Made by a program: the position numbers and the translations under genes. From assembly GCA_900768875.1 (NCBI GenBank), contig CAAGEP010000006.1:71950-135949 (forward strand): a DNA stretch of 64,000 nucleotides, written 5' to 3'. This document shows, in pieces, positions 1 through 22,345 of the stretch. The notes below the pieces were generated by a model, which worked only from the letters and a program-made list of their open reading frames with translations, made no database searches and had not been told where the DNA came from. The stretch is from Alphaproteobacteria bacterium. Lineage in GTDB: Bacteria > Pseudomonadota > Alphaproteobacteria > CAAGCB01 > CAG-977. The stretch's first letter is position 1. The number at the start of each line of letters is the position of its first letter.

Positions 1-593
1 CGCGGCTGTGCGGATTTGTCTGCTTCGCTTTTATAACAACGGCGACCGTTTTAACGCTGTCTTTGTTGCATTTGACGGGGGAATTCGAGGTTGATGCTAC
101 GCTGGCGGTCAATCCGACGTATTCCGAAAATCTGGCGTACTTTCAACCGCTGCATCCCGATATGCCCGCGATGGATTTGCTGTCCGAAATGTTTGTTCGC
201 CAGTTTATTACGGTGTCAAACACACTCTACAAGGATACGCACGAAATGATGCGCATGTGGGGGAGCGGCGGCATGGTTCGCTATATGTCGTCCCCGAGAA
301 TTTATGGCGAATTTTGGGACAGAGTCAGCAAAACGATGTTTGATGGCGATGCGCCGCCTTTGGCAACGATGGAGCCGCATATCCGCCGCATTTTGAAAGA
401 AGGCTGGAACAGCTGGCAAATCTTCTTTGAAACGCGCACGATGAAAAACAATATCGAAGATCCCAAAATCGAACATTGGATTGCAACGATTCAGTTTAGG
501 TATTATAGTTATAATGCGGTTATGTTCCGGCGGTTGCGCAACCCGATGGGCTTTACGGTAACGCAGTACCATTTGGCGCGGCAGAAAAGATGA
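1..593 (+). CDS. virB8: T4SS VirB8 family protein, 5'-truncated by window edge (frame open to position 3; hydrophobic TM-like segment CGFVCFAFITTATVLTLSLL then periplasmic NTF2-like domain)
   Basis: The frame is open from the window start, with no stop from nt 3. The periplasmic domain shares the signature F[RW]WG..G..RWMSSP..Y with the downstream VirB8 paralog. The stop overlaps the next start (ATGA). Confidence 0.7.
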   Translation, partial: RLCGFVCFAFITTATVLTLSLLHLTGEFEVDATLAVNPTYSENLAYFQPLHPDMPAMDLLSEMFVRQFITVSNTLYKDTHEMMRMWGSGGMVRYMSSPRIYGEFWDRVSKTMFDGDAPPLATMEPHIRRILKEGWNSWQIFFETRTMKNNIEDPKIEHWIATIQFRYYSYNAVMFRRLRNPMGFTVTQYHLARQKR

Positions 594-802
594 GGAAAAC
601 GGTTATGAAAACGAATTCGGTTAAAAAAGCTTTGATTGTCGCCGTGCTGACGGCAGGCGTTGCCGCGTGCGGATCGATTTTTGAAAAAGAACCCGTCGGA
701 ATCGGCAAGGATATTTCCGAACTCAAACGGTCGCCGTGCGCTTGCATGATGCTGAAGCTGCCTGCGGGACTGCCCGACTGGATGTTGAGCGCGCAAGGAT
801 AA
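590..802 (+). CDS. virB7: small lipoprotein, VirB7-like (signal peptide + lipobox VAAC)
   Basis: 70-aa ORF with an N-terminal signal peptide and an LTAGVAAC|GS lipobox. It sits between two virB8 paralogs, as in Rickettsiales rvh clusters. Its ATG overlaps the upstream stop (ATGA). Confidence 0.5.
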   Translation: MRKTVMKTNSVKKALIVAVLTAGVAACGSIFEKEPVGIGKDISELKRSPCACMMLKLPAGLPDWMLSAQG

Positions 803-808
803 TGCCCC

Positions 809-1588
809 ATGCCCAGACCGATGAAAAAACAACAGCCTTTGGTGCCGAAAAAAGACGCGGACGCGCCTTCTTCCGTTAATGCGAAAGATGACGCTCAGCC
901 CGTCAAAGCGCGCCCGAAAGCACAGGCGGCGCCTTCAAACGACGAGCTGACGGTTGATTTGTTGCGTGAACGCCGCTATTTGTGGACGGCGCGCGCGTTT
1001 GCGATTGTGTCGGCGGTGGCGCTGTGTCTGAATCTGGTTCTGATGATTGCGATGGCCAACTTGATGCCTTTGAAACGCGCCGAACCGTTTTTGCTGACAT
1101 TCCAAAGCAAGGACGATCAGGTTGTCCGCATCCGGCCGTTGGAATCCGATTTGGGGGCGAACGATTTGCTGACGGAAGCGATGATTCGCCAATATGTCCT
1201 GTTGCGCAACACGATGACCGCAGATATCGAAGAAATGTCGTTCCGTTGGGGCAATGACGGGCCTTTGCGCTGGATGTCGTCGCCCAATGTTTACAAACAA
1301 TTCGCCAAAACAATCAAAGACTGGCTGGCGCGCGTCAAATTGGAAGGCTTGACCCGCGAAGTCCGCATTGAATCCGTTGTTCGACAACAGGATATTTGGG
1401 TGGTTTATATTGTAACGCGCGATATGCTGCCCGAAGCCGACCAGCCCGTAACACAGCGTTGGCGCGTGAAACTGAAAGTCCGTTATTTCGGAATGTCGTC
1501 CAAAAACGAAGTCAAGTACGTTGACAGACTGAAAAATCCGTTGGGTTTTGTCGTGTCGGCTTATGCAATCGAAAGTGCCGCAGATTAA
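809..1588 (+). CDS. virB8: T4SS VirB8 (bitopic inner membrane protein; second paralog)
   Basis: 259 aa with an N-terminal cytoplasmic region, one TM (FAIVSAVALCLNLVLMIAMANL) and a periplasmic NTF2-like domain paralogous to ORF 1..593. Confidence 0.75.
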   Translation: MPRPMKKQQPLVPKKDADAPSSVNAKDDAQPVKARPKAQAAPSNDELTVDLLRERRYLWTARAFAIVSAVALCLNLVLMIAMANLMPLKRAEPFLLTFQSKDDQVVRIRPLESDLGANDLLTEAMIRQYVLLRNTMTADIEEMSFRWGNDGPLRWMSSPNVYKQFAKTIKDWLARVKLEGLTREVRIESVVRQQDIWVVYIVTRDMLPEADQPVTQRWRVKLKVRYFGMSSKNEVKYVDRLKNPLGFVVSAYAIESAAD

Positions 1589-1600
1589 AGAAGGTGTGCC

Positions 1601-3124
1601 GTGAAAAACAGTATTTCAATTCGTCTTTTCGCATTTGTTTTAACGGCGGCGGTCGCCGTGTCGGGGCGGGTTTCGGCTCAGCAGTCTGCCGCGCGCGAAT
1701 CCATGGATGCCGCCATTGAGCAGTCGAACGGCCAATATTCCGAAATCGACATGCCGTATCTGTGGTCGTTGGGCATGCAGCAAAAAGCGTGGAACAAACC
1801 GTTGGAACATTTGGGTGAAGGACAATCCAAACCGGGATATTCCCGCTATTTCTGGTCGCCCGATTTGGTACTGCCTTTGCGTATTCGCGAAGGAATGCAC
1901 ACGTTGATTAACTTTCCGTCGTGGGAATACATTGACAATGTGTTTTTGGGCAACGCCAGCGCATTCGGATCGCAAAAAGTCGCCGCAAACGCTTTGATGG
2001 TTTTTGCAAACAATCCGGAACTGGTCGGCATGGATACGAATATGATTGTGTTCGGCCGGTCGGGCAACCGCTATGTTTTTTATTTGCGCAGCGAAACGTT
2101 CAATGCGGACAGAATTACAAACGCCGTCGTCGATATTATTGTCAACGACAGTAAATTCGTTCCAGACGATTCGGGAAAAACCCCTTTTTCGGCGGGTGAG
2201 ACGGGTGTCGGCGCAACACCCGCGGGGGCGGCTTCCGTCGGCGGAACGGCAGGCAAAGCCAAGAGCAAAAAGCTGAAATTTTTTGATCCGATGAACGACT
2301 GGTTGGAAGATTTGGACGTCGATCCCGAAAAACTGAAATTCGATATTGATGTTTTCGTTCCCAATCCGGAAGACATGGAAATCGCCCCCGAACGCGTATG
2401 GCGCGACGAGATTTTCACATATATTGACTTGGGGCCGAAAGCGTTATCAATGACGCAGCGTCCGATTGTCAATCTGCTGGTGCAGGGCAGTGAAGTCCCT
2501 GTCGGTTTCAGAACGCGCGGGCCGAACGGACGGCTGATTGTGGTCGAAGGAATCGGCGATTTGGTGCTGCGAAACGGCAAACGGCTGTTGTGCTTGAAAA
2601 TTCGCAAAGATCCGAGCTTTGGCACGGATTGGGTCGAATATGACCAATCCGTACAGCCCGCTTATTCACCCGCGGGAATGAGAACCCCCGGCGTTTCGCC
2701 CCGCGGCGCGAACGAAATCGCCAATGAACAGGCGTCGTCTCAAATGGCGCGGCAGACGATAATACAGCGGGCGCAACAGCAGCAGATGTCCGACAATCTG
2801 TCTTTGACGGGCAGGAACGCACAGATTTCGGCGTCGTTTGCGAATCGCTATCGCCGTGCGGCGACGGAAACGATTGCGATTGAATTGGGCGCGGATGCTG
2901 AAATTTCGGCTCTGGAACGGAAGTGGGACAATATTTACCGCAAAAACAAAGACTTGCTTGCAAACTACGAGCCGTATTATTCGGTTGACGCGGTTGCCGA
3001 AGGCGAAACAAAGGATTTATTCCGTTTGCGCATCGGGCCCGTCGGATCGATTAAGGACGGCGACAAGTTGTGCAATCAGCTGGGTCGGCGCGGTGTCACC
3101 TGTATTGTGGTGCGGACGCAATGA
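1601..3124 (+). CDS. virB9: T4SS VirB9/TrbG/CagX family protein with C-terminal SPOR-like domain (507 aa)
   Basis: Signal peptide (AVSGRVSA|QQ). A VirB9 C-terminal-domain-like region (ERVWRDEIFTYIDLGPKA ... PIVNLLVQGSEVPV). The C-terminal ~70 aa resemble a SPOR repeat (DLFRLRIGPVGSIKDGDKLCNQLGRRGVTCIVV). Its stop overlaps the virB10 ATG (ATGA). Confidence 0.6.
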   Translation: MKNSISIRLFAFVLTAAVAVSGRVSAQQSAARESMDAAIEQSNGQYSEIDMPYLWSLGMQQKAWNKPLEHLGEGQSKPGYSRYFWSPDLVLPLRIREGMHTLINFPSWEYIDNVFLGNASAFGSQKVAANALMVFANNPELVGMDTNMIVFGRSGNRYVFYLRSETFNADRITNAVVDIIVNDSKFVPDDSGKTPFSAGETGVGATPAGAASVGGTAGKAKSKKLKFFDPMNDWLEDLDVDPEKLKFDIDVFVPNPEDMEIAPERVWRDEIFTYIDLGPKALSMTQRPIVNLLVQGSEVPVGFRTRGPNGRLIVVEGIGDLVLRNGKRLLCLKIRKDPSFGTDWVEYDQSVQPAYSPAGMRTPGVSPRGANEIANEQASSQMARQTIIQRAQQQQMSDNLSLTGRNAQISASFANRYRRAATETIAIELGADAEISALERKWDNIYRKNKDLLANYEPYYSVDAVAEGETKDLFRLRIGPVGSIKDGDKLCNQLGRRGVTCIVVRTQ

Positions 3125-6100
3125 ACGAAGAATTACTCAGCTCATCGGATAAATACTTGAAGAAATCCAACCGGACGTTGCTTCTGGTTGGAATCTTCGC
3201 GTTTCTTGCTTTTTTCATAGGCTTGATTGTTTTGTTGAGCGGCGGGGAAGCGCAAAAGGAAGACGCAAAAGTAACCGTTGAGGGAGCCAGCGACGCTTTT
3301 ACCGACATTACGGGGGGCGATGCCGACAACTTTTCCAATTTCGACGAACCGTCAACGGGCGTCAAACTGAACGTTACGCCCGATGTCATGCGCTTTGATC
3401 AAGTCGTGCTCGGCACTTCCGCGGAAGGGGCGCTGACCATCACGCCGTCATCGGGGCGCGTCAGCATTATGGAAATCGCGTTTGAAAACAACCCCGACGA
3501 CGGATTCAAACTGGAAAGCAAGTGTAAGCCGAACGATATTCTGACAACGGATTTGTCCTGTACCGTCATTGTCAAATGGGAACCGAAAACCGCACGGACG
3601 ATTCAATCGAATCTGGCGATTAAATGGCGTGATGAAACGGCTGGCGCAATCGGAAAAACGGTATTGGTTTCCGTGTCCGCCATGGCTATCGACACCAGCC
3701 TTTGCGGCGTGTGCGACGAAGCTCCGGGCGGTGGCACGACCGCCGATCAACTGCGTCAGAAAGGACGTTTGATTTTAGGACCCGACGGCAAACCTATCGG
3801 TTATGCGGACGAAAACGGTGTCGTGTACGGGTTGGACGGCAAACGCATCGGCACGTTGCGTCCCGACGGAACGGTTGTTGACGATCAGGGGTACATTATC
3901 GGTGTGGCGGAAGGCGTGCGCGTCGCTTTGGGGCCCGACGGCAGCATTATCGGAACGATTTTGCCCGACGGACGCGTCATTGACAAAGACGGCAATCTTA
4001 TCGGCTATGCTTTGCCCGACGGCACGATTGTGGATTTGAACGGCAATGTCATCGGCGCGGCAATGCGCACGGGAACGGCCGTCGACAAAAACGGCAATCC
4101 TATCGGCCGCGTGATGCCCGACGGACGTGTACTGGACGAAAACGGCAACCTTATCGGCTACTTGAATCCCGACGGCACGATTGTGGATTTGAACGGAAAC
4201 ATCATCGGTTCGGTGATGCCTTCGGGGGCGGTCGTCGATGCTTTGGGGCGCGTTTTGGGCATTGTCATGCCCGACGGTTCGGTGGTTGACAAAGACGGCA
4301 ATGTTATCGGCCGCGTTTTACCCAACGGGTTCGTGGTTGACAAAGACGGCAACATCATCGGCCGCGTGATTAAAGAAGGGCTTGCCATCGGTCCGGGGTG
4401 CCGCCTTATCGGCCGTGTCAGCACGGACGGGTCGGTCATGTCTTCCAACAAGCAGGTCGGACGGCTGACCGCGGCGATGATTGTGGTTGACATGGGCAAC
4501 AATCCCGTCGGCGGCTATGTGCAAGAAGGCGCGGTTTTGGGATGGGATGGAAAGACAATCGGCAAAATCGATTCCGACGGCCAGCCCGTCAGCTTCAAAG
4601 GCGATTTGCTGGGGTGCTTGCTGCCCAACGCGGCGGTTGTCAATGACAGCGAGGAGATGATAGGCGCTTTGCGGCCTTACGGAACGGTTGTCGGAACGCG
4701 CTGCGGTTTTGAAGGCCGCGTGATGCCCGACGGTTCCGTCGTTAACAACGGCGAACTCAAAGGGCGCATCTTGCCGGATAAAACCTTTTTGCGCGAAGAC
4801 GGAACCATCGGCGGCGCGATTGCCCGCAGTAACGTCGGGCTTGCGCCGGGATGCGCCAATTTGGGCTTTGCCAACATCGACGGACAAATGATGACCACCA
4901 AAGGCGAATTTGTCGGGTGTTTGGCGGCAAACGGCGATGTGCTGGATGACAAGTATGTCGTTTTGGGGCGTGTGTTGGATACGGGAACCGCTATCGGCGT
5001 TGACGGCAGAATGATCGGCATTTTGGACAGCGCGGGCAAAATTGTCGATAAAAACGGAAAAGTTTTGGCGTGCATGGATCCCGATTACGTCGCGATTTCC
5101 GAAACCAAAAACGAACCTGTCGGCATGGCGACCCCGCAGGGCGGCGTTTTGGACCGTGACGGCCGGACGGTCGGATGGGTGATGCCCGACGCGTCGGTCA
5201 AAAACACGCAGGGAGGTTCTGTCGGCAAAACATTGGGGGACGCCTCTGTTGTCGATATGACAGGGCAAAAAGTCGCCCGCGTCGTTCCGTTCCAAGGATT
5301 GCCGTTAAAGGCGGCGTGCGAACCCGTCGGGCGGATTATTATGGACGGGCGTATTGTCGACAAAGACTTTAAACGGACGGCGTATTTAAGACTGGACGAT
5401 TCTTTGGCGGACGAACAGGACAATTTCATCGGACGTTTGGCAACGGCTCAGCACGGCATCGATTCCCGCAGCACTTATGTGGGGGCGATTGACGAAACGG
5501 GGGCTTTGATTAACCAGGCGGGTGAAAAAGTCGGCTGCTTGCGTCCGGACAATCTGTTCGTCGACTCGGACGGAAAATTCAAAGCCGCGCAAATGCTCAC
5601 GGGGCTGGCCGTCAATCCGCAAACCGATTTGTACGCCCGCGGCGATTCAATCGGCAAAGCGTTAAACCTCAAAGGAACGGATTTTGTCGGTAAAACGTTG
5701 GTCAGCACTTACATTCAAAATGACGATAAAACGGTAACGGGCGGCATCATTCCCGCCGGAGCGGCGGTTTTGGACATTAAAACCAGCAAGCCCATCGGCC
5801 GTTTGCTGCCGGACGGCAATGCGGTGAATTTGCAAAGCCGTTTTCTGGGGCGGTTGAAAATGCCGGGCGGCGACGTTGTGGATCGCGCCGGAACCGTTGT
5901 CGGCCGCGTTTTTGTGGGATTGAGGCAAGTGATTGGGCCGAACGGCGAAATTTTGGGCGTCGTTTTGTCCGACGGAACGGTGATTGACGCCAACGGGCAA
6001 GTCATCGGACAGGCGGATTTGCAAGGAAAAGTCGTCGATAAGGACGGCAATGTCATCGGCGAAGTTCTGCCTGTGGGCATGCCTGTTTTGGGGGCGGACG

Positions 6101-9100
6101 GCAAAATCATCGGCTATGTCGGATTAAACGGCGAAATCGTTGACGAAGACGGCAAACCCGTGTTGGGCGAAGACGGCAAGCCTTTGCGTTACCGTTCGGG
6201 CGGAATGGTGGTCAGTGCGGACGGAAAAGTGGTTGGCTTTACGCTGAATGACGGCTTGGCGATCGGCTTTGACAACAAAGTGCTGGGAACAATCAACGCT
6301 CAAGCCGTTGTTCGGAACGCCAACGGGACGGACTTGGGGACGATGCAGGTTGACGGCACCGTCGTTGACACAATGGCGACGCCTATCGGTCGCGGACTGA
6401 TTAACGCCGTTCCCGTCGGCAGGCAATGCCGCGGGTTAGGGGCTGTGAATTCAGAGGGCAAAGTTGTTTCCGCTTCGGGCGACGAACTGGGGTTTGTAAC
6501 GTTTGACCGAGCCGTTTTGGATGCGACAAATACACAAATCGGAATTGTACTCAGCCCCGATTCCGTGATTGACAGACCGTGCAATATTACGGGCGAAATC
6601 GGGCGCGACGGTAAATTCCGCAGCGCAAGCGGCAACGAAACCGGCTGTGTGGATTTCGACGGCATCGTAACGAACAAAAACACGAAACGCATCGGAACGG
6701 TGATTTTGAAAGGACCTGTCATCGGCTTTGACGGCAAAGTGTTCGGTAAAGTCGTTCCCAACGGCGAAGTGTTGGATGCAGACGGCAATGTTTTGGGATG
6801 CTTCGGCGCAGACGGCGCGATTTACAACAAAAGCAACACGCTGACGGGCGTGTCCGATTTAATGAAATACGCCGTTGACGCCAAAGGAAAAACCGTTGCC
6901 AGAATCGTCGGCGGAAAATACGGCGTTTCACGGGAAAACGACAAATTGGTCGGGATGCTTGAAGGCGGAAGATTGCTGGATGACAAAGGGACGGAAATCG
7001 GGTTGCCCGTTCCCGCGGGCAGACGCGTCATCGGTCGTGACGGGCGCATTGTCGGCACGGTTCTGCCCAAAGGCGGTGTTGCGGCCGATAACGGTGAAAA
7101 CAAAGGCTTTGTAACATCCCGCATGCGCGCTTTGACACCCGACAACAAATTCTTGGGGCGTGTCGTTCCCGTCGGAGAGGAGTGTAAGGACAAAGGCGGA
7201 CAAGTCGTCGGCAAAGTTCATTTTGACGGTACGATTGTCGATGAAAACGTCGAAGTGCTGGGGCGTATTATGGCGAACGGTACGGCATTAAGCAATGCGG
7301 GAACGTATTTGTGCTCCATTTCTCCGATGAGCGTTGTTGACGATGTGTGGACAGGCAAAGCCGTGTATGATGCCAACGGAAATCTTATCGGTTATGTCGA
7401 CGAAGATGGAAACGTTCGCGATGCCAGCGGAAAAATCATCGGCCGCGTCATGCCCGACGGAACGGTCGTCGATTTGAACGGCAACACAATCGGTTATGTG
7501 GCTTTGGGCGAACCCGTGTATGATGCCAACGGCAAGCTTATCGGTTTTGTCGGCGAGGACGGCATTGTCCGCGATGCGCAAGGCAACGTTATCGGCACTT
7601 TGCGTCCCGACGGGACGGTCGTTGACGAAAACGGCAACATTATCGGAAAAACGTTGGGAACGCCGCTGTACGACGCTGACGGAAATCTTATCGGTTTCGT
7701 CGGCAAAGACGGGGTGGCGCGCGATTTGAACGGCAATGTGCTGGGGGTTCCCGTGTTTGACGAAAACGGCAAGCTTATCGGTTTTGCGGATAAAGACGGA
7801 AAGGTTCGCGATTTGAAAGGTAATGTCATCGGCACTTTGCGTCCCGACGGGACGGTCGTTGACGAAAACGGCAACATTATCGGAAAAGCGTTGGGAACGC
7901 CGCTGTACGACGCTGACGGAAATCTTATCGGTTTTGTCGGCAAAGACGGGGTGGCGCGCGATTTGAAAGGCAATGTGCTGGGGGTTCCCGTGTACGACGC
8001 CAACGGCAAGCTTATCGGTTTTGCGGATAAAGACGGAACGGTTCGCGATTTGAAAGGCAATGTCATCGGCAAAGTTCTGCCTGACGGGACGGTCGTTGAT
8101 TTGAACGGCAATGTCATCGGCAAAATCGATTCCAGGGCGATGCAGGCCAAAAAGAATGTTCGGATTGCGGTCGGCCGCGACGGCAAATTTTTGGGCATTG
8201 TCGGTGAAGACGGCTTTGTCCGCGACGCGAACGGCAATATCATCGGCAAAGTTCTGCCCGACGGAACGGTCGTCGATTTGAACGGCAACGTTATCGGTTC
8301 CGTGATAGAAGGCGAGCCGCTTTACGATGAAAACGGAAACCTTATCGGCGTTGTCAAAGCCGACGGAACGGTTGTCGATTTGAACGGTAATGTGCTGGGG
8401 CATTTGAACGCTGACGGCGAAATCGTTGACAAGGACGGCAATGTTATCGGCATATGGAAAAACGGCAAGCTGACCATGCAGGGCGACAAGCTTAAACCGC
8501 GATTCGCTTTTGATAAAAACGGCAACAGAATCGGCATCGTCCTGCCCGACGGAACGGTTATTGACGCGAACGGCAACATCATCGGCCATGTGGACGAAAA
8601 CGGCAACGTCATCGGTCTGGACGGCGAAATTATCGGCTCTTTGACCGACGGCGGCGGAAAAGAAGGCAAGGACAAAGATAAAGTTTCCGTTTTCGGAAAA
8701 TTCGATCCGGATTCCTACCGATACCGCGGTAAAGGTTTGGGCGCGGGCGGCGGCACGGGCAAGGGCGAACGCTATGACCCGTCGCGGATTAAAGAGCTGC
8801 GCGCGAAACAAATGGCTTACCGCAAAATGATTCGTCCGGGATTGGGCGCGGGATTGGAGGAGGATTCCGAATCGGCGTTGCTGAAAAAACAGCACAGAGC
8901 CAACAACTGGAGCAGCATCAACATTAATAAAAACGTATCGTCCTATCGTGTAAAGATGGATAATATGATTTTAGCGGACAAAGCCATTCCCGCCGTATTG
9001 ACGCGGTCAATCGATTCTTTGTACAGCGATGTTCCCGTTTCCGCCGTTGTGGAACGCAACGTGTATTCGGAAAGCGGCCGGAAAGTGATTATTCCCGCGG

Positions 9101-9993
9101 GCAGCCGTTTAATCGGTGAACAGGGAAACGCAGGGGCGGCTGAAGAAAACAGTATTGCCGTAAAAATGCAGATTAAATGGACGCGTTTGATTCGTCCCGA
9201 CGGTGCGGCGTTCAAGTTTGAAGACGGTGCGTCGGGCGACGCGCAGGGGCGCGCCGGTGTTTCGTCGTACGTCGATTTGCAGCTGATTCGGAAATTCGGG
9301 ACGCCGTTGTTGCAAAGTACGGTTTCCTCCGCGCTGTTGTGGGCGATGTCTTCCAATTCAAAACCCGAAGTCGGCGACAACGGCGAAATCGCGCTCAGCG
9401 ACCGTCAGCAGGCGGCGCAGGACGCGCGTTCTCAGTTTTCGGACGATATGAGATCGATGTTTGATTCCATTTTTGCCATGACGTCCAAAATTCCGGCTCG
9501 TTCGTTTGTTCCGTCGGGAACGCGGATTACCGTTTTCGCCAAAGAGGATTTATGGCTTCGTTCCGAAGTGGAAGATAACGAAGTCAATCCTATGCTTGGA
9601 AAGGGATTGGTAAACGAAAAAATGGGTACCGAAGAAGACTTGCGCCTGCAAAAACAAAAGATGAAAGACAAAGGCGAGGATATGGGCGGCTTGACGCAGG
9701 AACAAGTAAATCAAAACACTATGATAGCGGGCGGGACTCCGAACAATCCGCAAATGCAGCAGCAGATTTACTACAACAGCTACGGTCAGCCCGTTATGCC
9801 GCAACAAGGCGGATTGGCGCCTCAGCAAGTGCCGGCCGGATATTATGCCGCACCGCCGGGATACTACGGTTATGCTCCGCCGCCGCAGTCGCAACTGCTG
9901 ACTCCGCCGGCGCCGCAACAGCCGAAGCCGCAGAGCGCGCCGGCGCTTCAAGAATCGGTCAAGGATGAAGATCCCGCCCCCGAATTGTTCTGA
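3121..9993 (+). CDS. virB10: giant T4SS VirB10/TrbI family protein (~2290 aa) with N-terminal TM anchor, ~1600-aa tandem-repeat insertion, VirB10 C-terminal domain and Q/P/Y-rich tail
   Basis: The ATG at 3121 overlaps the virB9 stop. A TM helix follows (LLLVGIFAFLAFFIGLIVLLSG). The C-terminal region (YRVKMDNMILADKAIPAVLTRSIDSLYSDVPVSAVVERNVY...IIPAGSRLIGEQ...) matches the VirB10/TrbI fold signature. The gene sits in canonical virB9-virB10-virB11 order. Confidence 0.75.
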   Translation: MNEELLSSSDKYLKKSNRTLLLVGIFAFLAFFIGLIVLLSGGEAQKEDAKVTVEGASDAFTDITGGDADNFSNFDEPSTGVKLNVTPDVMRFDQVVLGTSAEGALTITPSSGRVSIMEIAFENNPDDGFKLESKCKPNDILTTDLSCTVIVKWEPKTARTIQSNLAIKWRDETAGAIGKTVLVSVSAMAIDTSLCGVCDEAPGGGTTADQLRQKGRLILGPDGKPIGYADENGVVYGLDGKRIGTLRPDGTVVDDQGYIIGVAEGVRVALGPDGSIIGTILPDGRVIDKDGNLIGYALPDGTIVDLNGNVIGAAMRTGTAVDKNGNPIGRVMPDGRVLDENGNLIGYLNPDGTIVDLNGNIIGSVMPSGAVVDALGRVLGIVMPDGSVVDKDGNVIGRVLPNGFVVDKDGNIIGRVIKEGLAIGPGCRLIGRVSTDGSVMSSNKQVGRLTAAMIVVDMGNNPVGGYVQEGAVLGWDGKTIGKIDSDGQPVSFKGDLLGCLLPNAAVVNDSEEMIGALRPYGTVVGTRCGFEGRVMPDGSVVNNGELKGRILPDKTFLREDGTIGGAIARSNVGLAPGCANLGFANIDGQMMTTKGEFVGCLAANGDVLDDKYVVLGRVLDTGTAIGVDGRMIGILDSAGKIVDKNGKVLACMDPDYVAISETKNEPVGMATPQGGVLDRDGRTVGWVMPDASVKNTQGGSVGKTLGDASVVDMTGQKVARVVPFQGLPLKAACEPVGRIIMDGRIVDKDFKRTAYLRLDDSLADEQDNFIGRLATAQHGIDSRSTYVGAIDETGALINQAGEKVGCLRPDNLFVDSDGKFKAAQMLTGLAVNPQTDLYARGDSIGKALNLKGTDFVGKTLVSTYIQNDDKTVTGGIIPAGAAVLDIKTSKPIGRLLPDGNAVNLQSRFLGRLKMPGGDVVDRAGTVVGRVFVGLRQVIGPNGEILGVVLSDGTVIDANGQVIGQADLQGKVVDKDGNVIGEVLPVGMPVLGADGKIIGYVGLNGEIVDEDGKPVLGEDGKPLRYRSGGMVVSADGKVVGFTLNDGLAIGFDNKVLGTINAQAVVRNANGTDLGTMQVDGTVVDTMATPIGRGLINAVPVGRQCRGLGAVNSEGKVVSASGDELGFVTFDRAVLDATNTQIGIVLSPDSVIDRPCNITGEIGRDGKFRSASGNETGCVDFDGIVTNKNTKRIGTVILKGPVIGFDGKVFGKVVPNGEVLDADGNVLGCFGADGAIYNKSNTLTGVSDLMKYAVDAKGKTVARIVGGKYGVSRENDKLVGMLEGGRLLDDKGTEIGLPVPAGRRVIGRDGRIVGTVLPKGGVAADNGENKGFVTSRMRALTPDNKFLGRVVPVGEECKDKGGQVVGKVHFDGTIVDENVEVLGRIMANGTALSNAGTYLCSISPMSVVDDVWTGKAVYDANGNLIGYVDEDGNVRDASGKIIGRVMPDGTVVDLNGNTIGYVALGEPVYDANGKLIGFVGEDGIVRDAQGNVIGTLRPDGTVVDENGNIIGKTLGTPLYDADGNLIGFVGKDGVARDLNGNVLGVPVFDENGKLIGFADKDGKVRDLKGNVIGTLRPDGTVVDENGNIIGKALGTPLYDADGNLIGFVGKDGVARDLKGNVLGVPVYDANGKLIGFADKDGTVRDLKGNVIGKVLPDGTVVDLNGNVIGKIDSRAMQAKKNVRIAVGRDGKFLGIVGEDGFVRDANGNIIGKVLPDGTVVDLNGNVIGSVIEGEPLYDENGNLIGVVKADGTVVDLNGNVLGHLNADGEIVDKDGNVIGIWKNGKLTMQGDKLKPRFAFDKNGNRIGIVLPDGTVIDANGNIIGHVDENGNVIGLDGEIIGSLTDGGGKEGKDKDKVSVFGKFDPDSYRYRGKGLGAGGGTGKGERYDPSRIKELRAKQMAYRKMIRPGLGAGLEEDSESALLKKQHRANNWSSININKNVSSYRVKMDNMILADKAIPAVLTRSIDSLYSDVPVSAVVERNVYSESGRKVIIPAGSRLIGEQGNAGAAEENSIAVKMQIKWTRLIRPDGAAFKFEDGASGDAQGRAGVSSYVDLQLIRKFGTPLLQSTVSSALLWAMSSNSKPEVGDNGEIALSDRQQAAQDARSQFSDDMRSMFDSIFAMTSKIPARSFVPSGTRITVFAKEDLWLRSEVEDNEVNPMLGKGLVNEKMGTEEDLRLQKQKMKDKGEDMGGLTQEQVNQNTMIAGGTPNNPQMQQQIYYNSYGQPVMPQQGGLAPQQVPAGYYAAPPGYYGYAPPPQSQLLTPPAPQQPKPQSAPALQESVKDEDPAPELF
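3775..8650 (+). repeat. intragenic tandem array (~90 copies) of a degenerate 17-19-residue unit V-[LM]-P-D-G-x-V-V-D-x-x-G-N-[VI]-I-G-x within virB10; includes near-identical 237-bp direct repeats (about 7591..7827 vs 7828..8064)
   Basis: Read directly from the translation (e.g. VMPDGSVVDKDGNVIGR / VLPNGFVVDKDGNIIGR). At the DNA level a 79-codon block is duplicated with only a few mismatches. Confidence 0.85.
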
Positions 9994-10009: not shown

Positions 10010-10987
10010 ATGGCAACAGACGCGTTTCAAGTGTTAAAGTCGGTTTTGCGCTATTTGTCCTATTGGTACGAACAGGACAATGTGGAAGAAGTCGCCATTA
10101 ACCGTCCCGATGAAATCTGGCTGCGTTTGCGTGGGCGCCGCGCGTATCCGTGGGCTTGTCAGCAGGATAAAAACCTGTCCAGAACGTACTTGATGGATTT
10201 GATGCACATTATCGCCAACACTTTTGAACTGCCGTTCGACCCCGAACAGGGATCCCCCGCCGTATACGCGACTTTGCCGGGCGATCACCGTTTTACGGGG
10301 ATTGCGGGCAAAAATGTGATGTACGATAACGACGATTTGACGGGCGGCATCGCCATGTGCGTCCGCGTTCATTCCGACGGCGTTAAATTCGGACTGGGCG
10401 ATTACGGGTTGAAAGCGGGTGAACGTCTGCAAAAACTGAACAAGCTGAAAGAGGTCGAAAACCCCGAAGACCCGTATGAACGTTTAATCCTGTCCATCAA
10501 ACGCGGCGATCACATTCTGGTTTCCGGTGCGACGGCGACAGGTAAAACGACATTTTTGAACAACCTCTTAACGATTCTGGATTCTCATAAACGCGTCATT
10601 ACGATTGAAGATACGCGCGAATTGATTGTTCCGCATCCGAATCACGTTCATTTGGTTTTGTCGCGTACCGAACAAACGAACACGATGACGTATCCGAAGC
10701 TGATTGACCTTGTCGTGCGTTTTACGCCCGACGCGATTATCGGCGGTGAAATTTCGACGGCGAACGCGGGAGCTTTGTGGGAATTGATGGGATCCGGTCA
10801 CGACAACTGCTTTGCGACCATTCACGCCGAAAATTCGGAAGCCGCGTACAAAGCGTTCACCGACCGCATTTTGCACTGTTATCCGACCATTGACCGCGAA
10901 AAAACGATTGCCGAAATGCACGACAAACTGCGTGTCGTGCAAATCAACCGTCAGGGCAACATCCGCGCGGTGACCGAAGTGACTTAA
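10010..10987 (+). CDS. virB11: T4SS ATPase VirB11
   Basis: 325 aa with Walker A GATATGKTT and the VirB11/CpaF family layout. It lies immediately downstream of virB10. Confidence 0.85.
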   Translation: MATDAFQVLKSVLRYLSYWYEQDNVEEVAINRPDEIWLRLRGRRAYPWACQQDKNLSRTYLMDLMHIIANTFELPFDPEQGSPAVYATLPGDHRFTGIAGKNVMYDNDDLTGGIAMCVRVHSDGVKFGLGDYGLKAGERLQKLNKLKEVENPEDPYERLILSIKRGDHILVSGATATGKTTFLNNLLTILDSHKRVITIEDTRELIVPHPNHVHLVLSRTEQTNTMTYPKLIDLVVRFTPDAIIGGEISTANAGALWELMGSGHDNCFATIHAENSEAAYKAFTDRILHCYPTIDREKTIAEMHDKLRVVQINRQGNIRAVTEVT

Positions 10988-11394
10988 CCGTTTGTTTCGG
11001 GGGCGGACTGTTGTTCGGCCGCTTGCGCCCGATGCGCGCTTTGTTCGTTCAGTCCGCGCGCGATGTTCATGTTGATGCTGATAAGAATATCCAGCGCCTT
11101 GGCTTCGGGATTGGCCATAACGGTAAAAGTGTGTTTGAAAATAAAGTGCGCCAGATTGAACACGTTTTGTTTGATTTCAAAGGGCAGCGGATTGGATTCC
11201 TCGGTCGCGTCGCTGACCAGAATCGTCCAAAGCTTGCGGTTCAAATCCAACGCTTCCTGCAGCTGTTCTTTGGAAACGGGCCAATTTTCCTTGCACGCGT
11301 TCAGACGCGACGCGGTGCGGACCAAAGCGCGGGCTTCCAGTTCATTTTGCGGCAACGCAGACGATTCTGCCGCGGCATAGGGATTCGTGTTCAT
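10984..11394 (-). CDS. FlaF-like flagellar biosynthesis regulator (tentative)
   Basis: 136 aa. It resembles alphaproteobacterial FlaF (ELEARALVRTASRLNAC...NRKLWTIL...NPLPFEIKQNVFNLAHFIFKHT). Assignment is from memory of the family, not a search. Confidence 0.45.
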   Translation of the reverse strand: MNTNPYAAAESSALPQNELEARALVRTASRLNACKENWPVSKEQLQEALDLNRKLWTILVSDATEESNPLPFEIKQNVFNLAHFIFKHTFTVMANPEAKALDILISINMNIARGLNEQSAHRAQAAEQQSAPETNG

Positions 11395-12440: not shown

Positions 12441-15400
12441 TCATTCCGCGCCGAATTTTTCTTCCGCCATTTTTTGCGCGGACACATAGTCGAATTTACC
12501 TGTTCCCAAAATGGGCGGTTCTTTGACAATGATGATTTTCGACGGCGTGCCGAGGTCGTTCAGTCCCACTTGCTTGATATACGCGCGGATTTGCGCCGCA
12601 TCGGCGTTTTCCGCTGTGGTAATCAGCACCAGCTGTTCGCCTTTTTTCACGTCGGCAATGGCGACGACGCCCTGAACCGCGCCTTCGTACAATTTTGCCA
12701 GTTCTTGCTCGATTGCCGTCAGCGAAATCATTTCGCCGCCGATTTTCGCAAAGCGTTTGGCGCGCCCTTTAATCGCGACAAAGCCGTCTTTGTCAACCGC
12801 GACGATGTCGCCCGTGTCATGCCAGCCGTCGGCGGGCGGCTGCAAGACGCAGGGTTTGTCCGCTTTCATATAGCCTTGCATGATATTGTCGCCGCGCACG
12901 AACAGGCGTTTGCCTTCGGTAATGCCGGGGACGTCTTCCAATCGGGCTTCCAACCCCGGAACCAAACGTCCGACCGTGCCGGCTTTGATGTACATCGGAG
13001 TATTCACGGCAATCAAGGGGGCGGCTTCGGTCGCGCCGTAGCCTTCCAAAATGCGGATGCCGAATTTTCTGCTCCACAATTCCGCGGTGGTTTCTTTCAG
13101 TTTTTCAGCGCCGACAATCGCATAACGCAGGGCAAAGAAATCGTACGGGTGAGCCGACGCCCCGTATCCCGCAAAGAACGTGTCCGTGCCGCACAAAATC
13201 GTCGCGTTCGTGGCGTACACCAGTTCGGGAACGATGCGATAGTGCAAAGGCGACGGATAATAGAACGTTTTGATGCCCGAAAGCGTTGTCAACAGCGTCC
13301 CGATGCCCAGCCCGAACGCGTGGAACATCGGCAAAGCGTTAAAGAATACGTCGTTCGAGTTCAAATCCAAAATGCTCAAAGCCTGATATCTGTTCGCTTG
13401 GAAATTGATGTGCGACAGCAAAACGGCTTTGGGCATGCCTTCCGACCCCGACGTGAACAAAATCGCGGCGGTTTGGTCGGCGGCGTGTTTGGGTTTGCGG
13501 CTCAGCAGGTAATCGGTAATGCCGCGGAATTTGTCTTCGCCCGAAACCTGCTGGGCAAAGTCTTCCATGTAAACCAGATTGATGCCCGCGTCGCGAATGG
13601 CGGCTTCCAATTTTTCCAGTTTGCCGCCTTCGATGAACTTGTGCGACGTCACGACCGTTTTCAAGCCGACCGTTTTAATACAGGACAGAACTTGAGCGAT
13701 ACCGCTGGAAAAGTTCAGCATGGCGGGGACTTTGTCGCGGCTTTGCAGGGCAAAGAACACAACCAGATTCGCCAAAACGTTCGGCAGCAGAATCCCCAAT
13801 CGTTCTTCATTCGGCAACAGGCGATCAAACGTGCGCCCCAAGACATAGCTTTTCAAAATCAGTGTTTTGTAGCGCAAAGGTTTGCGGCTGATATCTTCGG
13901 CGATGATATGGTGCTTGCCGTGGATTTTCTGCGCGTTCAGCAATCCCGTGAACAGATGTTCGTTGATTTTGGATGACGCGTACATCATTTCCGACATCAT
14001 CGTGTACAGCTGCAGCGAAACTTCGTGATTGCGCAGACGTCCCGTCAAAGCGGGATCAATGTCGAACTTTTTGTGCGGCATGATGTTGATGGTGATTTTG
14101 GGGAAGTATTGCGTTTTAAACTTTGTTTTCAGCAAAGAAAACTTGGAATACTGCGCCCCGTTGATGCGCACGGGCAGAATGTTCGCGTTGGCTTTTTCCG
14201 CGACGATGCCCGCGCCTTCGTACACTTTCATCAAAGCGCCCGTAACGCTGATGCGCTGTTCGGGGAAAATCATGACTTTGTTGTTGCGCTTAATCAAGTC
14301 GATTAACGAACGCAAAGACAGCGGATTGTTCAAGTCCAAAGGATACAAGTCCACCATCAGCGAAAAGAATCGCGCAAACCAGCGGTTTTCCCATTCGGGC
14401 TTGATGACGAACGTGATTTTTTCGGGCATGAACGCCGCAATCAGCAGACCGTCCAGCAAAGACGTGTGGTTGGCGACAATCAAAACGCGCTTGCCCGATT
14501 CTTGAAAATTGGGAAGCCCTTTGACGGTCACGCGGAACAGCGTTTCCAAAATCGTTTGCGCGATGGAACGCACCAAAGCCGCGGGCAGAACAGAGCAGTT
14601 GTACACCGACACGACAAAGCTTGCCAAAGCGAACAACAGGAAAATGGCGGAAATGCCCAAGTCAAAATGACGCAGAACGGCAACAATCAACGCCACGACG
14701 GCAATGCCCGCCGCGTTGATGATGTTGTTGGCGGCAAAAACGGCGGCGCGGTTGGCGTCGGTCGCTTTTTTCTGAATCAAGTTGCTTAACGGCGTGATAT
14801 ACATGCCGCAGCAAAATGCCAGCAGGAAAAAGAACAAGCAGAACACGGCGGGACGGAATCGGGTGATGAATTCGACGAAATCAACGCGTTCCGCAGGCGT
14901 TCCGTATCCCAAAGTCAAAACGGACAAGGCCAGAAAACACACGGCGATGCCCAGCGTGCTGATAGGAACGTAAGTGGTGTGGACAACGCCGCGCAGCAAA
15001 CGCGTGCAGTATGCAATACCGACGCCGACGCCTGCCGCGTACAAGCTCAGCAAAAACGCGGCGGCAACGGCATCCGTGTTGAACACCTGCGTAATCAGCG
15101 GATAAATCAGCAAAACAACCAGCAAACCCAGCGACCAAAACCACGTCGCGCCCAAAATGCTGCGGTAAATCAGCGGATAGCGGCGCACGGTGCGCAGGGT
15201 GGAGCGAATGCCTTTTAAAATGTTGCGGTCGAATTTCTGCAAATCGGGTTCGGGAGCTTCTTCTGCAACGGCGCGGGTGGCCAGATAACTGGCGAGCGAC
15301 AGCAGAATCAAGCACAGCGCGGCAAGGCGGACAGGCAGTAAAACGCCGAATAAAATCGCGACAACGATGCTGACATACGTTGATTTCGACGTATAGGCGT

Positions 15401-15821
15401 CACTGCCGATGAAGTCTTTTTCATCCAATCGTTCGGGCTGTAAAGCGTAGCGGATGGGACCGAAAAACGCGGACAAAGTGCCGAACAAAACGGGCAGGAT
15501 AATCAACAGTCCCGCGTTGTTGGCAAAGAAAACCAACCCTGCGACAAGCATCAAAACCAGTTCGACCAGTTTGACGGAACGGGTCAGCTTGATGCGTCCG
15601 TATTTTTTCGCCAACAAAGTGGCGCGCGCCGAAAACAAAAAGAACGGCAACAGCAAAAGCCCCGCAATCAGGTTTGACGGATCGGGCGATTGTTGTGTGA
15701 TGCGCACGGCGATAATCGTCAGCAAAGCGATTTTGAACAGGCTGTTCGTCAGTCCGTCAAACAAAACGGCAAATAGGCTTTTTGCGGCTTTGACCAAGTT
15801 TTCTGTGGAATGGGAAGACAT
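12441..15821 (-). CDS. aas: LplT-Aas fusion: MFS lysophospholipid transporter + PlsC-type acyltransferase (HxxxxD) + acyl-ACP synthetase (AMP-binding)
   Basis: 1126 aa. N-terminal multi-TM MFS region. NHTSLLD acyltransferase motif. AMP-binding motif TSGSEGMPKAV. Confidence 0.75.
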   Translation of the reverse strand: MSSHSTENLVKAAKSLFAVLFDGLTNSLFKIALLTIIAVRITQQSPDPSNLIAGLLLLPFFLFSARATLLAKKYGRIKLTRSVKLVELVLMLVAGLVFFANNAGLLIILPVLFGTLSAFFGPIRYALQPERLDEKDFIGSDAYTSKSTYVSIVVAILFGVLLPVRLAALCLILLSLASYLATRAVAEEAPEPDLQKFDRNILKGIRSTLRTVRRYPLIYRSILGATWFWSLGLLVVLLIYPLITQVFNTDAVAAAFLLSLYAAGVGVGIAYCTRLLRGVVHTTYVPISTLGIAVCFLALSVLTLGYGTPAERVDFVEFITRFRPAVFCLFFFLLAFCCGMYITPLSNLIQKKATDANRAAVFAANNIINAAGIAVVALIVAVLRHFDLGISAIFLLFALASFVVSVYNCSVLPAALVRSIAQTILETLFRVTVKGLPNFQESGKRVLIVANHTSLLDGLLIAAFMPEKITFVIKPEWENRWFARFFSLMVDLYPLDLNNPLSLRSLIDLIKRNNKVMIFPEQRISVTGALMKVYEGAGIVAEKANANILPVRINGAQYSKFSLLKTKFKTQYFPKITINIMPHKKFDIDPALTGRLRNHEVSLQLYTMMSEMMYASSKINEHLFTGLLNAQKIHGKHHIIAEDISRKPLRYKTLILKSYVLGRTFDRLLPNEERLGILLPNVLANLVVFFALQSRDKVPAMLNFSSGIAQVLSCIKTVGLKTVVTSHKFIEGGKLEKLEAAIRDAGINLVYMEDFAQQVSGEDKFRGITDYLLSRKPKHAADQTAAILFTSGSEGMPKAVLLSHINFQANRYQALSILDLNSNDVFFNALPMFHAFGLGIGTLLTTLSGIKTFYYPSPLHYRIVPELVYATNATILCGTDTFFAGYGASAHPYDFFALRYAIVGAEKLKETTAELWSRKFGIRILEGYGATEAAPLIAVNTPMYIKAGTVGRLVPGLEARLEDVPGITEGKRLFVRGDNIMQGYMKADKPCVLQPPADGWHDTGDIVAVDKDGFVAIKGRAKRFAKIGGEMISLTAIEQELAKLYEGAVQGVVAIADVKKGEQLVLITTAENADAAQIRAYIKQVGLNDLGTPSKIIIVKEPPILGTGKFDYVSAQKMAEEKFGAE

Positions 15822-16722: not shown

Positions 16723-18066
16723 ATGGATGAATGGCACAAAAGTTTGATTGACGACATCGGTGCTTTGCCCGAATACCGGTCGTACGGGTCGGTTTCGGCG
16801 GTCAAAGGCATGCTGGTCGAAATGACGGGCGCGCGTTCGGAACTGTCCGTCGGCGACCGCTGTACGATTTTGGCGCGCGCGGGCAAAAAAGTCCCCGCCG
16901 AAGTCGTCGGCTTCAACGGCGGCAAAGTGCTGTTGATGCCGTTCGTGAACCTTGACGGCGTAGGCCCCGGAAACGAGGTTGATTTAAGCAACGCGCATCC
17001 CGTCTTGTATCCCGATATTTCTTGGCTGGGGCGGGTGATTAACGCCATGGGCGAACCCGTCGACGGCAAAGGTCCGTTGAAAAAAGGCAAGGTGCCGTGC
17101 TTGATTCACGCGTCGCCGCCGCCCGCCAATTCGCGCGAACGTGTCGCGGGCAAAGCCGATTTGGGCGTGCGGGCGATTAACACTTTTCTGACGCTGTGCA
17201 AAGGACAACGTATGGGCATCTTTGCGGGATCGGGCGTGGGCAAATCGTCGTTGATGGCGATGATGGCGCGGCATACGCAGCTGGATGTGACGGTGTTGGG
17301 GCTTATCGGTGAACGCGGACGCGAAGCGCGCGAGTTCATCGAGGACGATTTGGGCGTCGAAGGCATGAAGCGCAGTGTCGTCGTGGTGGCGACATCGGAC
17401 GAAAGCCCTTTGATGCGGCGGCAGGCGGCGTATGTCGCGATGACGGTCGCCGAGTATTTTCGCGATTTGCACAACAACGTTTTGTGCATGATGGACAGTA
17501 TTACCCGTTTCGCGATGGCGCAAAGGGAAATCAGTTTGTCCGCGGGCGAACCTCCGGCGACCAAAGGCTACACGCCGACGGTGTTTGCGGAACTGCCCCG
17601 TTTGCTGGAACGCGCGGGACCGGGGCGCATCGGGTCGGGGTCGATTACGGGGCTGTTCACCGTTCTGGTGGACGGCGACGACCACAACGAACCGATTGCC
17701 GACGCGGTGCGCGGCATTTTGGACGGTCACATCGTTTTGGAACGCGCGATTGCCGAACGCAACCGCTATCCCGCGGTCAACCTGCTGCGCAGTATTTCGC
17801 GTACCATGCCGGGGTGCAACTCGGACGAGGAAAACGCTCTTGTCAACCGCGCGCGCGCTTTGATTGCGACATACGAAGACATGGCGGAGCTGATTCGGTT
17901 GGGCGCGTACAAGCACGGGTCGAACGCGCAAGTCGACGAAGCGATTTTCTATTATGACAAGCTGGAAGCCTTTTTGTCGCAAAAGAAAAAGGAAAAAGTC
18001 GATTTTGCAACGGGCTATCAGCAGCTGAAGGACATTTTGTCGCAAAAGCCCGCCGGTGCTGAATAA
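16723..18066 (+). CDS. fliI: flagellum-specific ATPase FliI
   Basis: 447 aa with Walker A GSGVGKSSL and the FliI/T3SS ATPase family layout. Followed by fliJ with a 1-nt overlap (TAATG). Confidence 0.85.
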   Translation: MDEWHKSLIDDIGALPEYRSYGSVSAVKGMLVEMTGARSELSVGDRCTILARAGKKVPAEVVGFNGGKVLLMPFVNLDGVGPGNEVDLSNAHPVLYPDISWLGRVINAMGEPVDGKGPLKKGKVPCLIHASPPPANSRERVAGKADLGVRAINTFLTLCKGQRMGIFAGSGVGKSSLMAMMARHTQLDVTVLGLIGERGREAREFIEDDLGVEGMKRSVVVVATSDESPLMRRQAAYVAMTVAEYFRDLHNNVLCMMDSITRFAMAQREISLSAGEPPATKGYTPTVFAELPRLLERAGPGRIGSGSITGLFTVLVDGDDHNEPIADAVRGILDGHIVLERAIAERNRYPAVNLLRSISRTMPGCNSDEENALVNRARALIATYEDMAELIRLGAYKHGSNAQVDEAIFYYDKLEAFLSQKKKEKVDFATGYQQLKDILSQKPAGAE

Positions 18067-22332: not shown

Positions 22333-22345
22333 AGGGTAATACGAT

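Follow-up and report, generated by a model that had tools for sequence, protein, structure and literature searches.

A SPOR-type domain fused to VirB9 in a chromosomal type IV secretion system of uncultured gut Alphaproteobacteria

In characterized type IV secretion systems (T4SSs), VirB9 is a multimeric subunit of the outer-membrane core complex and is present in approximately 14 copies. The canonical protein, represented by VirB9, TraO, TrwF, and CagX, comprises ~290 amino acids (aa), and one known T4SS solution for the cell wall is a lytic transglycosylase of the VirB1 type. SPOR domains, for their part, have been known on divisome proteins or lytic enzymes. Here, we describe a SPOR domain on a secretion-system subunit: a VirB9 homologue encoded in a 64,000-nucleotide (nt) stretch of DNA from an Alphaproteobacteria bacterium (CAAGEP010000006.1, 71,950–135,949 of the forward strand). 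The whole stretch is referred to as the window, and all positions are window positions.

Wall-binding modules on envelope machines are already well known, and two examples are relevant here. In Legionella, the Dot/Icm subunit DotK binds peptidoglycan and is required for polar localization (PMC10266036), and in type IV pili, the AMIN domains of PilQ recruit the machine to peptidoglycan of the septum (PMC5285504). DotK and the protein described here have a peptidoglycan-binding-type module in a T4SS outer-membrane complex in common. However, DotK is a separate OmpA-like lipoprotein of a type IVB system and targets the peptide stem, whereas the SPOR domain resides in cis on VirB9 of a type IVA-like system. 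PilQ likewise carries its wall-binding domains in cis on a multimeric outer-membrane channel subunit, for which both targeting and bracing have been proposed (PMC5285504). It differs in the AMIN fold, in the N-terminal position of these domains, and in the machine to which it belongs, and its function is established by experiment, whereas that of the VirB9 domain is read from sequence and a model. The Rickettsiales rvh T4SS resembles the present system in being chromosomal, in its scattered genes, and in a duplicated virB8 whose copies flank a small lipoprotein gene. In contrast, the hosts here are probably flagellated gut bacteria with a GC content of ~53%, and rvh VirB9 proteins are not known to carry a SPOR domain.

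A divergent VirB9 with a C-terminal SPOR fold

The gene starts with GTG, preceded at a distance of 6 nt by a ribosome-binding site (AGAAGG) that lies immediately past the stop codon of the preceding virB8, and its own stop codon shares an ATGA overlap with the ATG of virB10. The gene and the regions of its product are listed below; identities are mean pairwise values from an alignment of 35 homologues, and lengths are the ranges among them.

1601–3124, plus strand: virB9-SPOR gene, GTG start at 1601, TGA stop at 3122–3124, 507 aa
1601–1678, plus strand: Sec-type signal peptide, residues 1–26 (...VSA/QQ), assigned by inspection; identity 0.21, 9–33 aa
1679–1840, plus strand: conserved N-terminal extension upstream of the CagX match, residues 27–80; identity 0.63, 53–58 aa
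1841–2146, plus strand: VirB9 N-terminal domain, first half of the CagX match, residues 81–182; identity 0.75, 101–103 aa
2147–2308, plus strand: G/A/K-rich variable loop between the VirB9 domains, residues 183–236; identity 0.33, 47–67 aa
2309–2620, plus strand: VirB9 C-terminal domain, second half of the CagX match, residues 237–340; identity 0.76, constant 104 aa
2621–2866, plus strand: low-complexity A/Q/S/R-rich linker, residues 341–422; identity 0.15, 68–176 aa, predicted local confidence (pLDDT) <50
2867–3121, plus strand: SPOR-fold domain with E428, L473-x-R475-x-R477, C491, and C501, residues 423–507; identity 0.62, always 85 aa

Residues 82–332 match the Pfam family CagX/VirB9 (PF03524) with 48.0 bits, above the cut-off of 34.2, and the same family is matched by all 35 aligned homologues. 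The NCBIfam equivalog model for VirB9 (TIGR02781) aligns only partially, over residues 85–166, and its 41.1 bits stay below the cut-off of 217.7. As the CagX cut-off is passed and the gene order virB8-virB9-virB10-virB11 is found at the cluster, homology and synteny identify the 507-aa protein as a divergent member of the VirB9 family. The T4SS that it serves as VirB9 subunit is chromosomal, of the P type (VirB/D4-like), and belongs to an uncultured gut alphaproteobacterium. With canonical VirB9 it shares the signal peptide, a CagX match across two regions taken as the N- and C-terminal domains, a gene flanked by virB8 and virB10, and a nearby gene for a VirB7-like lipoprotein. It differs in its length, the N-terminal extension, the inter-domain loop, and the linker with the SPOR domain. 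At the signal peptide junction, A26 and Q27 are invariant, and the N-terminal extension (residues 27–80) is predicted with low confidence to be helical.

The original prediction, made from the DNA alone, had proposed a VirB9 homologue of nearly double the canonical length, fused via a Q-rich linker to a SPOR-like domain, and the C-terminal peptide it cited, DLFRLRIGPVGSIKDGDKLCNQLGRRGVTCIVVRTQ, is found verbatim in the 507-aa protein. Length and family are borne out by the CagX match, and the linker (residues 341–422) is indeed rich in A, Q, S, and R. Of the terminal ~70 aa described as SPOR-like, the fold stands while the size had been underestimated, as the domain spans ~85 aa (residues 423–507).

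Several independent lines of evidence bear on the SPOR assignment. In the Pfam search, SPOR (PF05036) also scores above its curated cut-off, albeit marginally: residues 461–505 reach 23.6 bits against 21, and only profile positions 34–76 of 76 are covered. The domain is a constant feature of the family, since all 119 full-length proteins among the top 120 homologues terminate in it and 34 of the 35 aligned homologues match SPOR (E ≤ 0.01). An AlphaFold2 model of residues 416–507, built from a 28-sequence alignment, has a pLDDT of 87 and adopts a β-α-β-β-α-β topology. Searched with Foldseek against the PDB, its top matches are the SPOR domains of CwlC (1x60; E 3.7e-4, template modeling (TM) score 0.75), RlpA (6i09 and 6i05, the domain with and without denuded glycan; TM 0.72–0.73), and DedD (6ztg), with generic ferredoxin-like folds ranking below them.

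A profile of the domain, run against 1.84 billion representative sequences, returned 848 matches, the first ~27 of which are VirB9-attached copies or fragments thereof. Below these rank periplasmic proteins with two to four SPOR repeats (E 1e-19 to 1e-10). Five such multi-repeat proteins were scanned and score 71–88 bits with Pfam SPOR, two of the five also containing ankyrin repeats. At the level of sequence, solved structures are barely reached: the domain profile yields a weak match to CwlC (E 0.12), and neither the single protein nor the family profile retrieved a solved VirB9 or SPOR structure, the only matches being noise and low-complexity alpha-synuclein hits. Apart from the marginal Pfam score, family-wide conservation, predicted fold, and reciprocal profile search agree, and the homology of the VirB9 C-terminal domain to SPOR is therefore solid on modeling and comparative grounds. 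An ordinary VirB9 extension or a chance Pfam match, the outcome that would have spoken against the fusion, is contradicted by the same three results.

The full-length protein is less tractable. An AlphaFold2 model from 35 aligned sequences is poor outside the SPOR domain (pLDDT 48); it places β-strands in both VirB9 regions at a pLDDT <55 and does not dock the SPOR domain confidently on the VirB9 core. This model was left out of the fold search and of inter-domain geometry.

The pattern of conservation is informative by itself. A hypervariable tether precedes a strongly constrained terminal domain, as is usual for SPOR proteins, which indicates that the arrangement of domain and tether reflects a function under selection. 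Like the SPOR domains of FtsN, DamX, DedD, RlpA, and CwlC, the VirB9 domain combines the β-α-β-β-α-β fold with a C-terminal position after a disordered linker, and it retains the x-R-x-R-x-G-P strand with its basic patch as well as a cysteine pair as in FtsN. None of the 390 domains that we aligned deviates at either cysteine (C491, helix 2; C501, strand 4), and the two likely form a disulfide bond in the periplasm. As a separate observation, large proteins of 900–1,100 aa (P0161, P0166, P0173, and P0177) have an N-terminal PLVDAAD motif in common. The two that were scanned, P0161 and P0166, carry ankyrin repeats at the N terminus and, in addition, two or three SPOR domains of this Cys-pair subtype.

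The glycan-binding face

How a SPOR domain holds its ligand is known from RlpA, which grips denuded glycan mainly via backbone atoms of β1 and the side chains of Q270, R302, R309, and R311, while L307 and F274 supply hydrophobic contacts (PMC6895207, Alcorlo et al.). The amide of Q270 forms hydrogen bonds to the lactyl carboxylate of N-acetylmuramic acid (MurNAc) and to the N-acetyl carbonyl of N-acetylglucosamine (GlcNAc), and the L307/R309/R311 group binds the MurNAc lactyl carboxylate (PMC6895207). Most RlpA glycan contacts are made via the backbone, and since the backbone makes these contacts, SPOR domains are typically <20% identical to each other; the glutamine, equivalent to Q251 in FtsN and Q351 in DamX, is the sole highly conserved residue (PMC6895207). 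In simulations of the RlpA domain, the same contact is indicated as the one that excludes deacetylated glycan (PMC6895207).

To compare the binding sites, the 390 domains were aligned to the profile and VirB9-linked domains were set against non-VirB9 repeats. At the hallmark β1 position, 134 of the 136 VirB9-linked domains have glutamate (E428 in the window protein) and one has glutamine, whereas among non-VirB9 repeats glutamine prevails (149 of 194 aligned) and glutamate occurs in 24. The Gln-type member, P0157, is the sole VirB9-SPOR protein found with the canonical residue (IAVQLGSA); its closest relative is only 46% identical, and P0157 may preserve the original form of the fusion. A second contact is also altered: position 12 of the hidden Markov model (HMM), corresponding to F274 of RlpA, is D, N, G, H, or S in the VirB9-linked domains but Phe or Tyr in 134 of 205 aligned non-VirB9 repeats. 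In contrast, the basic patch (R309/R311 of RlpA, R285 of FtsN) is kept, with R475 in 127 and R477 in all 136 VirB9-linked domains, both within L-x-R-x-R-x-G-P. The window sequence L473-F-R475-L-R477-I-G-P thereby retains the complete L307/R309/R311 pattern of RlpA. According to the strand register, E428, Y459, S461, D463, R475, and R477 point to the open face of the sheet, and all six are invariant or nearly so. The VirB9 domain thus departs from the FtsN/RlpA type in three respects, namely Glu for Gln, loss of the aromatic residue, and a much higher sequence conservation.

The glutamate is not confined to VirB9. It recurs in the N-terminal repeat of alphaproteobacterial two-SPOR proteins of ~370–500 aa, within the motif [FY]Y[IV]E[LIV]G and again without the aromatic residue; P0158, P0172, P0182, P0187, P0195, P0211, P0214, and P0243 are among them, and the Glu-type repeat of P0182 scores 71.5 bits with Pfam SPOR. 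As bona fide SPOR-repeat proteins account for all 24 non-VirB9 domains with glutamate, the residue is compatible with SPOR identity. Because the variant recurs outside VirB9 in such proteins, the Glu type looks like a natural subclass rather than a product of decay. With the hallmark glutamine replaced and the aromatic residue lost, the VirB9 domain is nevertheless expected to bind more weakly than the FtsN and RlpA domains or with altered specificity, even though the arginine pair and the hydrophobic residue are kept.

A proposed multivalent wall tether and its alternatives

The reading that we favor, with a probability of roughly 0.55, is that the SPOR domain of VirB9 serves as a multivalent peptidoglycan tether of the outer-membrane core complex with non-canonical specificity. 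Because VirB9 is present in ~14 copies in characterized core complexes, each machine would carry a ring of about 14 SPOR domains suspended in the periplasm at the height of the sacculus. The disordered linker of ~80 aa would be able to bridge the outer-membrane layer and the sacculus, and the ring would hold the complex to peptidoglycan multivalently, thereby fixing its position and bracing the machine. Binding would proceed via the retained arginine patch and backbone contacts, while the glutamate would alter the affinity or specificity of each domain. Such binding would owe its effectiveness to avidity rather than to individual molecules homing with high affinity on denuded glycans of the septum.

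Besides the VirB9 identity and the SPOR fold, several observations are consistent with a tether. The contrast between the SPOR domain (identity 0.62, 85 aa) and the variable linker (0.15) suggests purifying selection on the domain, and the open face of the sheet is strongly conserved, with the basic patch retained. Further, the genome encodes a potential source of ligand, an AmiC-type amidase whose gene lies 18 kb from the T4SS cluster; since this enzyme produces denuded glycans, these should be made in the host. Finally, DotK and the AMIN domains of PilQ provide precedents by analogy.

A number of points weigh against the tether. The stoichiometry of ~14 copies is borrowed from characterized VirB9 systems. 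The host lineage is uncultured, the tether role is inferred, and the poor full-length model (pLDDT 48) gives no usable geometry relative to the core complex. At the binding face, the only highly conserved side chain that contacts the glycan is replaced by glutamate in 134 of 136 VirB9-linked domains, which also lack the aromatic residue of HMM position 12. The equivalent substitution in FtsN, Q251E, is reported to render the isolated domain defective, lowering both its septal localization and its binding to denuded glycan (bioRxiv 10.1101/2024.05.13.594014). Moreover, peptidoglycan-binding-like folds in T4SSs, such as DotK and Lpg0657, can also be structural subunits (PMC7511231).

Canonical SPOR activity would have the domain bind the denuded glycans left by septal amidases and thereby direct assembly of the machine to midcell and the new poles. 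This was the function given in the original prediction, of which the SPOR fold has held up while the binding specificity appears doubtful. The established fold and homology, the retained arginine pair, the AmiC-like amidase in the window, and PilQ AMIN and DotK as precedents all agree with it, as does the presence of glutamate in the 24 bona fide SPOR-repeat domains, among them the high-scoring repeat of P0182. However, the Gln-to-Glu change and the lost aromatic residue, along with the reported defect of FtsN Q251E, count against it. A carboxylate cannot donate the hydrogen bonds made by the glutamine in RlpA, and it would repel the lactyl carboxylate. We consider septal targeting by the VirB9 SPOR domain unproven and unlikely.

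The next alternative in probability, likewise doubtful, takes the SPOR fold as a protein-docking module that has given up peptidoglycan binding. Its partner could be the β-flower region of VirB10, VirB7, VirB8, or a neighboring VirB9, contacted via the mixed-charge face of the sheet. An identity of 0.62 across proteins that are ~50% identical overall is high compared to the usual <20% of SPOR domains and would fit a protein interface, as would the loss of glycan-binding side chains. Moreover, the fusion co-occurs with a β-flower VirB10 even in a relative that is only 46% identical, and a docking role was first suspected for DotK/Lpg0657 (PMC7511231). Yet a hypervariable tether of 68–176 aa would be more in keeping with a spread-out target like the sacculus than with docking at one fixed site, the full-length model contains no confident intramolecular docking, and the closest relatives of the domain are free periplasmic multi-SPOR proteins.

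Least probable among these is an altered glycan specificity, by which the Glu-type domain would recognize another feature of peptidoglycan, for example N-deacetylated glucosamine, with E428 pairing to its ammonium group. Where the machine is placed would then depend on how the wall is modified. The invariant glutamate on the ligand face beside two arginines is compatible with this idea, and the recurrence of [FY]Y[IV]E[LIV]G in other alphaproteobacterial two-SPOR proteins points to a functional subclass. In RlpA simulations it is the glutamine contact that excludes deacetylated glycan (PMC6895207), and in Legionella, both DotK binding and Dot/Icm localization depend on peptidoglycan acetylation (PMC10266036). 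The proposal is speculative nonetheless, and we regard it as improbable compared to the wall tether of non-canonical specificity described above.

The secretion locus and its lineage

The cluster to which virB9-SPOR belongs opens the window; its other genes and the amidase gene are as follows.

1–593, plus strand: virB8 paralogue (Pfam VirB8, PF04335, 40 bits), 5′ end cut by the window edge
590–802, plus strand: small lipoprotein of 70 aa, candidate VirB7, lipobox ...GVAAC assigned by inspection
809–1588, plus strand: virB8, 259 aa (Pfam VirB8, 79 bits)
3121–9993, plus strand: giant virB10, ~2,290 aa (Bflower_2, PF21785, 385 bits; Bflower, 196 bits; DUF3659; TrbI, 105 bits, residues 1967–2163)
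10010–10987, plus strand: virB11 ATPase (TIGR02788 VirB11, 145 bits; Pfam T2SSE)
21091–22332, plus strand: AmiC-type N-acetylmuramoyl-L-alanine amidase with an AMIN domain, from a scan of the window genes

In a related locus that is 94% identical (L001), the orthologue of the first virB8 encodes 229 aa and starts at a point corresponding to ~100 nt before the window start. The lipoprotein open reading frame (ORF) that separates the virB8 pair is kept at the same position in 21 related loci (tblastn) with an invariant ELKRSPCAC motif. It has no match in Pfam, and from its position and type we infer a candidate VirB7. The suggestion that the SPOR domain stands in for VirB7 is ruled out by this conserved lipoprotein ORF.

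VirB10 is unusually large. Approximately 1,900 aa of β-flower repeats (PF21785, PF21784, DUF3659) lie between its N terminus and the C-terminal TrbI domain, and its tail, ...D(P/A)xPELF, is conserved. The gene directly follows virB9 across related loci, and in 19 of the 20 loci that reach past virB9, a stop-free frame of ~2,040–2,530 aa extends from the virB9 end; in the remaining one (L012), it amounts to 1,658 aa. Thus, as read from these loci, the SPOR fusion and the enlarged VirB10 co-occur across the lineage. The order is also found in two more distant loci. The 46%-identical relative (L024) has a small ORF, virB8, virB9-SPOR, a virB10 of 1,507 aa with β-flower and TrbI domains, and virB11 amid housekeeping genes. 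The locus of P0157 (L023) is a compact operon of TrbC-type (virB2-like), virB4, virB8, virB9, and virB10 genes, with the order kept up to the contig end.

The remainder of the window is ordinary chromosome, with genes for FliI, RNase E, the AmiC-type amidase, PBP1A, RF2, and FtsK, and in L001, genes for a hydrolase, an isochorismatase, and a DEAD-box helicase come between the cluster and virD4, which is encoded 7.6 kb upstream on the other strand. The system is consequently chromosomal with scattered genes; no relaxase was seen among the genes scanned. Two further proteins between virD4 and the L001 cluster (2530–3606 and 3626–4741, minus strand) are without a Pfam match. Directly 3′ of virB11, on the opposite strand, a small ORF (10984–11394, minus strand) resembles by eye the flagellar regulator FlaF. 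Together with the FliI-type flagellar ATPase at 16723–18066 (plus strand), it suggests that the host is probably flagellated and no reduced endosymbiont. Other features of the window include the tandem of the amidase gene and a class A penicillin-binding protein with transglycosylase and transpeptidase domains (21091–24952, plus strand), and a single 1,126-aa ORF (12441–15821, minus strand) that joins a major facilitator superfamily transporter, an acyltransferase, and an AMP-binding domain, recalling a lysophospholipid transporter fused to acyl-acyl carrier protein synthetase and acyltransferase. For a 1,380-aa ORF (37595–41737, minus strand), Pfam gave no match at E ≤ 1e-5.

A search with the VirB9-SPOR protein as query retrieved more than 1,900 clusters at 90% identity, and a second search from the most divergent member returned more than 1,000 clusters. 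Matches with an organism name are labeled “Alphaproteobacteria bacterium” or similar, one of them only “Pseudomonadota bacterium”, and the clusters of ten divergent members carry a taxonomy no deeper than “Alphaproteobacteria bacterium”. The 22 species-level genome loci derive from metagenome-assembled genomes of human gut, rumen, horse feces, and similar sources. By these counts, the fusion has become fixed in an uncultured lineage of Alphaproteobacteria that is both large and abundant in the gut. The earlier description of it as uncommon is therefore valid for characterized systems but not for this lineage, in which it is widespread. One locus (L002, CAVCSV010000010.1), with a VirB9 that is 87% identical, sits in a bin titled “Limosilactobacillus gorillae”, probably a binning or labeling error.

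A literature search found no paper describing a T4SS component, VirB9 or otherwise, that bears a SPOR domain, and none linking RF32 with type IV secretion; both Pfam domains, CagX and SPOR, are already precomputed on some database entries. The VirB9-SPOR fusion is real, widespread, and undescribed, while the underlying idea is incremental. Its most notable aspect is that glutamate has become fixed in place of glutamine at the key SPOR contact.

How T4SS machines cross and hold the cell wall is only partly understood, and the solution in Legionella is a separate OmpA-like protein, DotK. A wall-binding-type domain in cis on the VirB9 ring subunit would be a different and testable solution that is fixed in a gut lineage. 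The natural Gln-to-Glu change, in turn, offers a test of SPOR diversification beyond the recognition of denuded glycans. Tentatively, Glu-type SPOR domains may form a distinct functional class that recognizes modified peptidoglycan or the VirB10 β-flower rather than acetylated denuded glycan. If this is true, the Glu-type SPOR domain and the giant VirB10 together would constitute an undescribed periplasmic T4SS architecture in a gut-abundant lineage.

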